This document shows positions 30,482 to 39,694 of a stretch of DNA of 64,000 bases, piece after piece. The stretch's first letter is position 1; each line of letters begins with the position of its first letter. The notes beneath the pieces are model-generated. The model saw only the letters and a program-made list of their open reading frames with translations. It searched no databases and had not been told where the DNA came from. Source of the stretch: a virus. A program made the position numbers and the translations under genes. The stretch spans positions 64,001 to 128,000 of the IMG/VR virus record IMGVR_UViG_3300042878_001826. One strand, 5' to 3'.

Positions 30482-32755
30482 ATGCAACAAAATTCTGACC
30501 TTCTAAACGGAACAATACAAATATTCGACAAGTTCGATATTGGTGCGACACAATCTGGTGATTACAATTTCACACCTACATTTCCTTCTATAGGAAGTGA
30601 ATACATATTGACATTCGATAATCTGACGAATGTAATAAAGTTTGAGAAGTTTCAATACGACACGCTTGGAATGACAAGTGAAAGGTTCTTAAATAACTTT
30701 TATAGAATATCAAGAGACAAAACAAACTGGAGTGCATGGCTTCCTTTAAATAGGAATATTGAAAACTTTCCTGTAATCGATCCTAACGATCCACTTTACT
30801 TAGATATTAAATGGGTAAGAGCAGGAAGTTCTACTATAGGAACTATCAGACTTTTAGAATATGCAATCGAAGGCAAACTTAATAGAGTTGTAGTAGATGA
30901 CGGAAGTGTAGTTCAGGTTCCTCCTGGAAAGACTTTGATAATGAAAGCACCTTTTATCTATAAAGTATTCTCTGTAAACGATATTGAAATATTGTCTGGA
31001 TCAGACCTTTCTAATACAATAATAAAATACAGATACTCACAAGATAATGAAAGAACATGGTCTGAGTGGGAATTGTTCACAAAAGAAAACGTAACCACTA
31101 CAAGAATAAATCCTATTAGATTCTTTCAAGTAGAATATTCTATACACAACAACTCTGGCTCTAACATATCGATACAAGATATCAATATAATAGGTGATGT
31201 TCAAAATGTTAGTAAAGACTATTTCAAATCTAACCTTATGGGAATAAGAGAATGTTGTACTTCTAATATGACAGGATATACTGATGCTAATGGAAACTTC
31301 GTGGCTAGTACTGGTGCAAATGTTGGGGCTGGAGGAAATACACTTGGTGGAAGTGGAGTAGGTGGTGGTAGTGCATGTGCAACCGATGGTAATGGAAGTT
31401 CTCTTCCTAAGATGACAAGTGAGGACAAAGCAGGACTTTATAATCCCTATCAACAAAACACTGCTATGGATCTTCTTACTAAACTTAGTACGGACGCACA
31501 GGAAGTATTTGGACACGCGACTATATACTTCTGTACCGATCCTGATAAGAAAGGACAAGATCACACAATGCATGAGTATCAACTATTCAATGTAGTATGT
31601 GAAGGAAACATAAAAGTATCTGTTGATAATAATGCATTCCCGGATAGTCAGATAGTAATGAATCAATTTGATTTGAATCTATTTGAACAAATGGAAGTAC
31701 ATATAACGAAACAAGCATTCAAAGAAATATTTGGACCTCAAAGAAGACCTTCGAAAGAAGACTTTTTATATTTCTGTAATCTTAATAGAATGTATCAGGT
31801 AGATCACGCACAACAATTTAGAAACTTTAACAATGCTGCGGTGTACTACAAACTACATCTGAAAAAATACAGTCAAAAAGCAAACGTCAGGGCAGGTACT
31901 GCAGATATTGCAGATACACTTAAAAATCTTACTAAGAACACAACTCTTGATGAACTTATGGGAATCGAGATGGCTCAAGATAAAGCGGCCATCGCTAACA
32001 AAGACCAATACAAACCATTGACTAAAGATCCAATCAGATTGGAATACTTAGCTGAGATTGATAAAGAACTTATAGAAAATTCTAGTACTATTATATCTAG
32101 AGCAAACTACGACATGTCAAGTGTTGCATATAGAACCCCTGCAGTAAGATACAAAAATCTTGATGCTCAGTTGAAAGTATCTGATAATATAGGATTCTAT
32201 GTTTGGTTTAAACTTCAGAATTATATAAAAGATGAGTTATATAACTTGTTCCATTATTATGATGATACAAACTCTTTCGGTTGGAAAGCAGACATTGTAA
32301 ACGATGATATTGTATTTACTGCAAATGCAACTGAATATAGATACCATCTTAAAGGTAATCCAACAAACGATGTTATTGCATTAGACGAAGATACTTGGTA
32401 TTGCTATGCACTTAATGTGGATCAAAGAAACAGAGAAATGACTCAATGGATCTATAAGAGAGATATTTATGATGAGGATGAAGGAGCACAAGCACCTTCA
32501 ACAATACTACACAATGTTTATAGAGGTTCTCAGACAATCGTTCCATTTGAGTATGTAATCGAAGGAGACTATTGTAGTATCTTAGGTTCTGATATGAGAT
32601 TGACGAATGTTAGATTGTTCATAGAAACTATACCAGAAGGATATCATAATAAGATTCTTAACCAGTATATAATAAGAGACGACTCTAAGCATATGGTTTT
32701 TGCAGATAATGCAACAACAAGAATCTATCTACCGAACTTCCCGTACAACGAATAA
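30482..32755 (+). CDS. virion structural protein with central T4 gp14-like neck domain and C-terminal LamG-like region
   Basis: QEVFGH..IYF; F.EIFG...RPSKEDFLYF..LNRMYQV resembles the gp14 RP..GD.IYFP motif; late box upstream. Confidence 0.6.
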   Translation: MQQNSDLLNGTIQIFDKFDIGATQSGDYNFTPTFPSIGSEYILTFDNLTNVIKFEKFQYDTLGMTSERFLNNFYRISRDKTNWSAWLPLNRNIENFPVIDPNDPLYLDIKWVRAGSSTIGTIRLLEYAIEGKLNRVVVDDGSVVQVPPGKTLIMKAPFIYKVFSVNDIEILSGSDLSNTIIKYRYSQDNERTWSEWELFTKENVTTTRINPIRFFQVEYSIHNNSGSNISIQDINIIGDVQNVSKDYFKSNLMGIRECCTSNMTGYTDANGNFVASTGANVGAGGNTLGGSGVGGGSACATDGNGSSLPKMTSEDKAGLYNPYQQNTAMDLLTKLSTDAQEVFGHATIYFCTDPDKKGQDHTMHEYQLFNVVCEGNIKVSVDNNAFPDSQIVMNQFDLNLFEQMEVHITKQAFKEIFGPQRRPSKEDFLYFCNLNRMYQVDHAQQFRNFNNAAVYYKLHLKKYSQKANVRAGTADIADTLKNLTKNTTLDELMGIEMAQDKAAIANKDQYKPLTKDPIRLEYLAEIDKELIENSSTIISRANYDMSSVAYRTPAVRYKNLDAQLKVSDNIGFYVWFKLQNYIKDELYNLFHYYDDTNSFGWKADIVNDDIVFTANATEYRYHLKGNPTNDVIALDEDTWYCYALNVDQRNREMTQWIYKRDIYDEDEGAQAPSTILHNVYRGSQTIVPFEYVIEGDYCSILGSDMRLTNVRLFIETIPEGYHNKILNQYIIRDDSKHMVFADNATTRIYLPNFPYNE

Positions 32756-38504: not shown

Positions 38505-38536
38505 ATCTTTTATATATGAAAAAAGTTCTTATGTTA

Positions 38537-39058
38537 TCATAAGAACTTTAAAATCTGCTCTTTTATGCCAGATTGTTTGATTCCTTCTTTCATTCTCTTA
38601 GTGTGAACGAAACATTGTAAAGCACTAAGATCCAAATCGTCAATGGCTACCCATTTCTCTACGTCTGGATGACTCGAAAGCCATTCCGATATTTCGGCTA
38701 CTCTCGTGCTTTCAAGTTCGTCCATAGACTTTAAAACGTGATTAGGTGTACTCCCAATCGGTGCTTTTAAAACTCCGTACTTGATAAACATATCCTGTAA
38801 CTGCTCTAGTGTACAATGCAACTTCCAATCAGAAGATACTACAATCTCAGCATCAGTTATTGTCAATATGTCGTTTAAGACTTTAACTGCCTTTGAGTTA
38901 AAGTTGTCCATTTTTATATGTGCCGGTATCTTTGGATCGTTTACGTATCCAGGATCTCCAGGATTAGAAAGCTTCCATTTCTTAATCTTTTTGTCGCGAC
39001 CGCCCCACTCTGTAGATAAGCACATTACTCCATCGTTATCCAAAAATATTACTTTCAT
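38537..39058 (-). CDS. HAD-family phosphatase (Swiss-army-knife RNA-repair-like HAD)
   Basis: IFLDNDGV; IVVSSDW; R..EI..WL; WVAIDD. Confidence 0.8.
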   Translation of the reverse strand: MKVIFLDNDGVMCLSTEWGGRDKKIKKWKLSNPGDPGYVNDPKIPAHIKMDNFNSKAVKVLNDILTITDAEIVVSSDWKLHCTLEQLQDMFIKYGVLKAPIGSTPNHVLKSMDELESTRVAEISEWLSSHPDVEKWVAIDDLDLSALQCFVHTKRMKEGIKQSGIKEQILKFL

Positions 39059-39075
39059 AGTGTAAATATAATAAA

Positions 39076-39228
39076 TTATTTCTTCTTTAACAATTTTTTA
39101 AGCGATTTAAAAATATTTTTCTTTGCTTTTTTCTTTATCTTCTTTTTCTTTATCCTAAGGATTTCGTAACTTGATTCCAAGTTTCCGCTCATCACTTCCT
39201 TTGATATTATCTTTTCTTTTAATTCCAT
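39076..39228 (-). CDS. small Lys-rich protein (50 aa, not in ORF track)
   Basis: MELKEKII...RIKKKKIKKKAKKNIFKSLKKLLKKK. Confidence 0.5.
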   Translation of the reverse strand: MELKEKIISKEVMSGNLESSYEILRIKKKKIKKKAKKNIFKSLKKLLKKK

Positions 39229-39245: not shown

Positions 39246-39413
39246 TTAATCCATTGAGTGCAGCACAAAATCCTTTATGTCACAGTTCACTATTGGCTTT
39301 CCGTCATGTCTAACTGGTATCGCCAATATTTCTTTTTTCCCGTTCTCTTTTTCGACGGTATGAAACATGTACAACTTGCCATCTTTCATATACTTGTAAA
39401 TAGTCATTTCCAT
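39246..39413 (-). CDS. small hypothetical protein downstream of the attenuator
   Basis: Likely start MEMTIY at 39413. Confidence 0.55.
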   Translation of the reverse strand: MEMTIYKYMKDGKLYMFHTVEKENGKKEILAIPVRHDGKPIVNCDIKDFVLHSMD

Positions 39414-39432
39414 ATCTTTATTTTTTAAAATC

Positions 39433-39464
39433 AAAAAACCCAGCCTTAATAAAGACTGGGTTTA
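39433..39464 (-). terminator. intrinsic terminator of the putative attenuator
   Basis: AAACCCAGTC-TTTATTAA-GGCTGGGTTTTTT on the minus strand. Confidence 0.8.
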
Positions 39465-39483
39465 AATATCGTTGAATACAATA

Positions 39484-39546
39484 TCATAAACTCAGTCGTT
39501 GACTGTTTTGTTCATGCAAAATCATTTTGTTATTAAATTCTCTCAT
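39484..39546 (-). CDS. putative 20-aa leader peptide MREFNNKMILHEQNSQRLSL
   Basis: Lies between the promoter boxes (39563-39577) and the terminator; its last codons are complementary to the terminator 5' arm. Confidence 0.55.
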   Translation of the reverse strand: MREFNNKMILHEQNSQRLSL

Positions 39547-39590
39547 TACTTTATTTCTTTTACAAAGATATATATTATTTTTCAATAAAC

Positions 39591-39694
39591 AAAAAACCCT
39601 CTCTTTAAAAGGAGAGGGTTTGGGCCAAATCTTTATTAAGATCTTTGTTTTCGGCTCCACCACCTTGTTTTATGACTACAAGGAAAACATACTC
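39591..39694 (-). ncRNA. candidate structured non-coding RNA
   Basis: No ORF beyond 4 codons; helices TGTTTTC/GAAAACA, CCTTGT/ACAAGG, GATCTT/AAGATT; ends in terminator AAACCCTCTC/GAGAGGGTTTTTT. Confidence 0.45.

Follow-up and report, generated by a model that had tools for sequence, protein, structure and literature searches.

On the minus strand of the window (the whole 64,000-nt stretch of DNA analysed here, taken from bases 64001-128000 of an IMG/VR virus record of 150 kb and ~61% completeness), a compact unit lies between the terminators T1 and T3. It comprises two overlapping putative promoter boxes, a predicted leader ORF of 20 codons, a further terminator (T2), two small ORFs (orf55 and orf50) and a gene for a HAD phosphatase. 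The features of the unit, in the order in which they would be transcribed, are as follows.

39594..39621, minus strand: terminator T1, at the end of the upstream uvsX-like / Hc1-like unit and of a conserved structured element.
39593-39590, minus strand: -33-like TTTG contributed by the T run of T1, 19 nt before the -7 box (spacing read from the sequence).
39569..39577, minus strand: putative phage-type promoter box (T)AATATATA, here TAATATATA, overlapping the host-type box; assigned from motif enrichment and kept in relatives.
39563..39570, minus strand: host-type (Bacteroidota sigma-A) -7 box TATCTTTG, assigned from its motif class in the genome and from the placement in Flavobacterium.
39484..39546, minus strand: predicted leader ORF of 20 codons plus TGA, with the ATG at 39546 and the TGA at 39486-39484, encoding the peptide MREFNNKMILHEQNSQRLSL; kept in 19/19 variants.
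39501..39505, minus strand: region 1 (CAGTC), the partner of the opening 5 nt of region 2 in a predicted hairpin that is a candidate for a pause or anti-antiterminator function.
39487..39497, minus strand: region 2, the antiterminator strand GACTGAGTTTA (RNA GACUGAGUUUA), made up of the last four leader codons, with the stop codon directly after.
39465..39485, minus strand: inner hairpin of 8 bp with a 5-nt loop, which stacks under the 2:3 pairing; the stem is conserved and the loop variable.
39452..39464, minus strand: region 3, the 5' arm of T2, with region 2 or region 4 as alternative partners.
39430..39447, minus strand: region 4, the 3' arm of T2 (39447-39436) with the T run, which pairs with region 3.
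39246..39413, minus strand: orf55, the first putatively gated gene, starting 22 nt after T2.
39076..39228, minus strand: orf50, a lysine-rich small ORF whose counterparts in relatives have 42-53 aa.
38537..39058, minus strand: HAD phosphatase, by Pfam match to PF18143 HAD_SAK_2 (E 6e-24).
38522..38549, minus strand: terminator T3, found by the terminator scan, which closes the unit.

An initial annotation of this DNA had already placed the two promoter boxes, the 20-codon ORF and the terminator on the minus strand, and its coordinates proved exact in every case. Both boxes also belong to motif classes that recur in the genome. TAT[CA]TTTG is found 34 times in the window against 12.3 expected, and TAnnTTTG precedes 30 gene starts, 4-36 nt upstream. 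TAT[CA]TTTG is the sigma-A -7 box of Bacteroidota, which in Flavobacterium has been placed at -12 to -5 of mapped starts (PMC9723704), and on this basis we infer that the host is most likely a member of this phylum. Upstream of genes, no 8-mer is more enriched than the second class, AATATATA (16-fold, 38 genes), which usually stands 4 nt or ~21 nt ahead of the ATG and in many cases follows a T run. Examples of (TTTTT)AATATATA at gene starts are seen at window positions 30482, 58014 and 59466; many of the 38 genes are large, and the 4-nt spacing amounts to a near-leaderless arrangement. We suggest that (TTTTT)AATATATA is probably the phage's own middle or late promoter, in which case the leader probably has two overlapping promoters, one of host type and one of phage type. 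At the leader, the AATATATA box sits 22 nt before the ATG. Transcription is predicted to start near 39558, which would give a 5' UTR of ~12 nt, and the leader 5' UTR is similar to those of other genes in the genome. No promoter motif was found between T2 and orf55.

The window has a G+C content of 34% and, by crude gene calling under the standard code, a coding density of ~95%. An alternative genetic code was considered and rejected, as the standard code gives a coding density of 95% with stops distributed as 130 TAA, 40 TGA and 32 TAG. The region of the uvsX-like recombinase shares 68-76% DNA identity with uncultured phages of 630-640 kb, and the best reading is that the window derives from a large phage with early promoters of Bacteroidota type.

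The two tiny ORFs and the HAD phosphatase that had been reported downstream of the terminator are indeed present. The first, orf55, encodes a conserved small beta-rich protein (structure model with a mean pLDDT of 76) that returned no Pfam or PHROG match and no PDB match with E below 0.4, and orf50 returned no family match. For the HAD protein, initially described as of RNA-repair type, the single match is PF18143, whose name refers to an association with predicted RNA-repair proteins. Directly before the HAD gene (window 39058-39090, minus strand) stands TATATTTA followed by 4 nt and the ATG. This is one mismatch from the host-type box, and the same leaderless arrangement is seen at seven other genes. 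A relative that will be considered below, L014, has the box as well, with TTTG 20 nt upstream of it. Since the box is close to consensus, the HAD gene may be driven by a weak promoter of its own, independently of T2.

On the other side of the unit, the stretch between the Hc1-like gene and T1 (window 39690-39592, minus strand) forms a conserved structured element, comprising in order a hairpin CCUURU...AYAAGG, an invariant UGGUGGA, a variable hairpin, GnCCC and then the terminator. It was recovered in at least 24 distinct variants, including those of 385-634 kb relatives, with no Rfam match; the CCUURU...AYAAGG hairpin shows G-C to A-U covariation in 5/15. The 5' arm of T1 likewise gains energy by upstream pairing.

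We next consider the pairing between the end of the leader ORF and the terminator. The segment GACTGAGTTTA (39497-39487) is complementary at 10 of 11 positions to TAAACCCAGTC (39464-39454; RNA UAAACCCAGUC), the remaining position being an A·C mismatch. The stem of T2 itself (39463-39436) has 12 bp and a predicted energy of -17.1 kcal/mol, and is followed by the T run. When the 3' arm of T2 was withheld, the antiterminator was the minimum-energy fold (RNAfold); its hairpin (39497-39454) has an energy of -15.1 kcal/mol with z = -6.0, a value reached by none of 300 dinucleotide shuffles. The 8-bp inner hairpin (39485-39465) lengthens the 2:3 pairing. The complete RNA favours the terminator, at -30.7 kcal/mol vs -25.1 kcal/mol with the antiterminator forced. 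The complementarity had been interpreted initially as an antiterminator that excludes the terminator, with folding of the alternative structures by RNAfold named as a check, and both the shuffling control and the two folds bear this out. Since the full-length RNA at equilibrium always favours the terminator, antitermination rests on an assumed kinetic trap.

Two parts were absent from the initial annotation, namely this inner stem and a hairpin between regions 1 and 2 (CAGUC-AAC-GACUG, 39505-39493), which has 5 bp and uses the first half of region 2. As this predicted 1:2 hairpin stands beside the 2:3 and 3:4 pairings, all four segments of a classical attenuator are present. Folding of the RNA at growing lengths gave the 1:2 hairpin first, then the 2:3 pairing, which replaces 1:2 once region 3 exists, and then the terminator once its 3' arm is made. 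A survey of the 150 kb genome yielded 51 terminator-like hairpins, and among terminators of -12 kcal/mol or stronger it was T2 and T1 that showed the largest energy gain from upstream pairing. Rfam returned no match at the gathering threshold for the whole window; below threshold, the best scores on the element were ~20-22 bits vs gathering scores of 43-54, which is at chance level.

The effect of a translating ribosome was simulated by placing a 28-nt footprint on the RNA before folding. With the P site at codons 1-12, nine arm nucleotides were sequestered in the antiterminator, and with the P site at codons 16-20 (including the stop) none were. The same pattern was obtained for four divergent variants (L047, L064, L067 and L042). 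The simulation thus reproduces the logic proposed at the outset, in which a ribosome at the stop would mask the antiterminator.

Relatives of the unit were gathered from the contigs of orf55 homologues in protein databases and by scanning metagenome contigs with an orf55 alignment. Among the 29 loci obtained there are 22 different upstream sequences and 19 different leader units of full length, every one of the 19 lying directly upstream of an orf55 homologue (55-100% identity). The overlapping promoter boxes are kept in most variants. Six distinct variants have one or two extra genes where the promoter would be, and their leader lies inside an operon; these variants keep the leader ATG, 7 nt after an 82-aa gene, and the conserved unit therefore begins at the ATG. 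The extra genes between T1 and the leader (107-110 aa and 82 aa) can be seen in L038:1282-1861, L042:1360-1937, L039, L041 and L050. For L049 and L050 (P0002, P0007), the public calls of the orf55 homologue are extended N-terminally through T2 and need TAG to be read as Q, which looks like a gene-calling artefact and not recoding.

The distant orf55 homologues L045, L068 and L069 have no leader. In L014 (IMGVR_UViG_3300024180_000005), the closest relative among viral contigs, T1 runs almost directly into the HAD gene (compare L014:2777-2853 with window 39573-39095), ~18 nt standing where the window has the leader, T2, orf55 and most of orf50. L014 retains the start of the 107-aa gene seen in L038 together with the last codons of orf50 and is therefore a deletion derivative; the absence of the whole module from it indicates that the module is dispensable. 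Exact and degenerate DNA patterns of the leader gave 0 matches in viral contigs, in which no orf55 relatives were found either, and L005-L013, the HAD relatives from viral contigs, are preceded by a different gene, lack the leader and are thus uninformative about it.

A genome-wide search for similar leaders, also named as a check at the outset, found none: the covariance model R1 detected no second copy of the unit in the 150 kb genome or in 55 loci, and in five large relatives it gave only weak matches (E 0.03-0.09). One of these, L071:1501-1605 (LR745206.1 345085-345189), has a AATATATA box, then a 14-codon ORF, with a small gene following, and another, L072:1501-1606 (IMGVR 3300032288_004964, 254691-254796), has a 22-codon ORF. 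In both of these huge relatives a stretch upstream pairs with the 5' arm of the terminator that follows each ORF; the layout is thus repeated in other genetic contexts, and the two may represent further leader attenuators in the same phage group.

With the 3' arm withheld, all 19 variants form the same extended hairpin (-10.9 to -16.3 kcal/mol), and their terminators range from -11 to -23 kcal/mol. The second antiterminator pair (columns 51/94 of an unbiased MAFFT alignment) is A-U in 13 variants, G-C in five and G-U in one, and is unpaired in none. The states of regions 1, 2 and 3 at the shared position are U-A-U in the window type, U-G-U in L042 and C-G-C in L047 and L064-L067; it can be seen that the bases of region 1 and region 3 change in step, which is the pattern predicted when two alternative partners share one base of region 2. 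In L064-L067, whose orf55 homologues are 55-60% identical, the lower stem and the inner hairpin differ in sequence and length with pairing kept, and L067 carries two additional double changes relative to L064. The internal mismatch is never converted to a pair: it is C·C in L042 and A·C in the other variants, and the loop sequences vary freely. In L042 the antiterminator is much weaker (-10.9), and the terminator is weaker too (-11.1).

The terminator helix of T2 covaries, as does the 1:2 hairpin, which has 4-5 bp, is predicted in 19/19 variants and covaries with region 2. For the antiterminator and the terminator-state structures alike, neither any of 500 shuffles nor any slid control matched the covariation score or the count of two-sided cell changes. 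Most of the variants are close relatives and the independent compensatory events are therefore few, corresponding to roughly 4-6 lineages. Furthermore, the lower stem of the L064 type is placed wrongly both by MAFFT and by the covariance-model alignment, and the covariation argument depends in part on folds of the individual sequences instead.

The leader ORF has 20, 19, 15, 14 or 13 codons, and its ATG is conserved in 19/19 variants. The stop codon is TGA in all of them, while TGA makes up 20% of the stops in the genome. In the window type it follows region 2 immediately on the 3' side, and in the L064 type it falls within region 2 (GGC-UGA-G); the reading frame relative to the structure differs between the two. 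The ATG and region 2 are separated by 49 or 46 nt in variants of the window type and by 42, 39 or 36 nt in those of the L064 type; all three changes of length within a type are multiples of 3, and indels in loops are of 1-2 nt. Covariation in relatives had been named as a further check on the proposal. The 19 distinct sequences, with their compensatory changes, frame-preserving indels and the TGA in or beside region 2, strongly support its structural part, namely a promoter, a translatable leader and two mutually exclusive folds of which the antiterminator would be masked by a ribosome at the stop.

The encoded peptide is poorly conserved except for an N-terminal M-[RK]-x-[FIY]-[EN] that is kept across types. 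The leader of the window had been described as free of an amino-acid run, and neither a run nor a shared enrichment was found in the peptides compared (MREFNNKMILHEQNSQRLSL, MRAYEQKAQSIEKDSWRLSL and MKAIEKLQLKWPNG). Codons 17-18 (CGA CTG) are the genome's rarest Arg and Leu codons (5% and 4%), and this end of the leader thus appears to be shaped by pairing, not by codon preference. The frame-preserving indels and the TGA at region 2 are indirect signs that the leader ORF may be translated.

Taken together, the terminator/antiterminator switch with its leader ORF is real and conserved: its parts are in place, its two folds are mutually exclusive, and the pairings are maintained with compensatory change. 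The most likely of the explanations, which we hold with moderate confidence, is that a large phage here carries a transcription attenuator of the ribosome-dependent (leader-peptide) type. Translation of the leader, the coupling of ribosome to polymerase and the direction of the response are inferred parts of this model, which would run as follows. Transcription would start at the overlapping host-type and phage-type promoters or, in some relatives, would read in from the upstream gene. The leader ORF of 13-20 codons would be transcribed first, and the small 1:2 hairpin would form as the polymerase proceeds. As it emerges, region 3 would zip onto region 2 by way of the inner hairpin to give a hairpin of about -15 kcal/mol. 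This antiterminator would hold 9 of the 12 arm nucleotides while the 3' arm is still to be made, such that the terminator would fail to nucleate and the polymerase would continue into orf55, orf50 and the HAD phosphatase gene. A ribosome at the last five codons or the TGA would mask region 2 and half of the inner hairpin; with region 2 masked, region 3 would pair with region 4 and transcription would end ~125 nt from its start. Brisk, coupled translation of the leader would accordingly lead to termination, and missing, slow or early-stalled translation to read-through. The 1:2 hairpin and the U-rich stretch after it may act as a pause site that lets the ribosome catch up. Given a poorly conserved peptide that lacks any amino-acid run, what the leader reports would be translation capacity in general and not the supply of one amino acid. 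Leader-peptide attenuation has been reported as likely in Flavobacterium, which belongs to the presumed host phylum (PMC9723704).

Other explanations of the locus have to be weighed against ribosome-dependent attenuation. The simplest, that the complementarity is a chance match in AT-rich DNA near an ordinary terminator, is very improbable: a single 10/11 match within 60 nt is not rare at 34% G+C, and upstream pairing also occurs at some other terminator-like hairpins of the genome, but the hairpin stands far outside its shuffles (z = -6, 0/300) and the comparative data, in which compensatory changes keep the pairing among 19 distinct sequences whose neighbouring protein is as little as 55% identical, refute chance for practical purposes. 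It is unlikely, though less so, that the unit is a stand-alone small gene for a ~125-nt small RNA and/or the 20-aa peptide, its hairpins serving RNA stability or a function in trans, with orf55 and its neighbours expressed by constant leakage through T2. A promoter-to-terminator unit of ~125 nt is typical small-RNA architecture, attenuator RNAs and leader peptides can act in trans, as reported for rnTrpL and peTrpL (PMC6614838, PMC7968998), and the M-[RK]-x-[FIY]-[EN] N-terminus is kept across types. However, a stable small RNA would not need two mutually exclusive, covarying structures, six distinct variants lack a promoter of their own and lie inside an operon, and orf55 has no other promoter motif. 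The unit always adjoins orf55 on its upstream side and is found nowhere else in the genome or in the 55 loci, and the peptide is otherwise poorly conserved, its last codons being set by pairing even to the use of the rarest codons.

We also regard it as decidedly unlikely that the switch is real but is worked by a factor other than the ribosome, be it an RNA-binding protein (like PyrR, TRAP or BglG), a small molecule, an RNA acting in trans or temperature, with the ORF incidental or secondary. The conserved stem of the inner hairpin could serve as a binding site, there is a resemblance to the Rfam PyrR site that is not significant (20 bits vs a gathering score of 54), and a conserved structured element is also found upstream of the neighbouring T1. 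Against this, no Rfam family reaches its threshold, the loops vary, and the window type and the L064 type share no unpaired motif beyond the pairing strands. Such a factor would, moreover, leave unexplained why the frame runs from the ATG to a TGA at region 2 and why the indels preserve it. A pyrBI-type coupling attenuator was rejected separately, as the leader ORF stops 20 nt before the terminator arm and does not run into it.

A wider reading, which builds on the attenuation model and which we hold to be unlikely, is that the unit serves as an alarm circuit of the phage. The leader would gauge the translating capacity of the host; if this were crippled by a defence system, for example by tRNA or rRNA cleavage or by ribosome inactivation, ribosomes would no longer finish the leader, T2 would be read through and a rescue module of orf55, orf50 and the HAD phosphatase would be switched on. 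The dual promoters would keep the gauge running throughout infection. The suggestion of the initial annotation that these are counter-defence genes, turned on when the host attacks translation, is speculation.

The element is conserved across a family of uncultured freshwater and marine phages and has no amino-acid-specific codons. If it works as predicted, phages would monitor the translation of their own messages and adjust transcription to it, and a compact part of ~120 nt would be at hand for translation-responsive control in Bacteroidota, for which few genetic tools exist. In addition, orf55 and orf50 would be marked as genes that the phage expresses conditionally, which offers a starting point for work on what they do.

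In bacteria, leader-peptide attenuation is textbook knowledge as a control of amino-acid operons. No published leader-peptide attenuator borne by a phage was found in the literature, which does not in itself prove that there is none. Phage control of read-through at intrinsic terminators is familiar from lambda N/nut and Q/qut and from the put RNA of HK022, where RNA polymerase is modified to ignore many terminators; here, in contrast, a single terminator would be masked by an alternative RNA fold, with a leader ORF. The toiL uORF of E. coli topAI-yjhQ reportedly acts through Rho-dependent termination, unlike the present element, which uses an intrinsic terminator with an explicit antiterminator. 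The two are alike in being regulatory uORFs, and toiL is reported to sense ribosome stalling by several classes of translation inhibitor (PMC12121999).

Among the systems checked, the nearest functional analogue would appear to be the mycobacterial whiB7 uORF, a reporter of general translation stress that is alanine-enriched and acts on a transcription factor belonging to the stress response of the cell itself (PMC10274678). In both cases a short upstream ORF precedes a conditional terminator, stalling from multiple causes is proposed to lead to read-through, and the peptide varies between species. The phage leader differs in having no compositional bias, in its host and in being phage-borne, and the one hint that its putatively gated genes would answer translation stress is the Pfam family name of the HAD protein.

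In its architecture the unit most resembles the leader-peptide attenuators of amino-acid operons (trpL, hisL, pheL, leuL, thrL and ilvL), to which the Yanofsky model applies. Like these, it has a short leader ORF, a predicted 1:2 pairing, a 2:3 antiterminator and a 3:4 intrinsic terminator, and the ORF ends by region 2, such that a ribosome at the stop would block the antiterminator. Unlike these, its leader has no run of regulatory codons and encodes a variable peptide, it is borne by a phage with dual host-type and phage-type promoters, and it would gate small proteins and a HAD phosphatase and not genes of biosynthesis or aminoacylation. Finally, the 1:2 hairpin of the phage leader is weak (4-5 bp), and an untranslated leader is therefore predicted to read through into orf55, and not to super-attenuate as in the trpL class.
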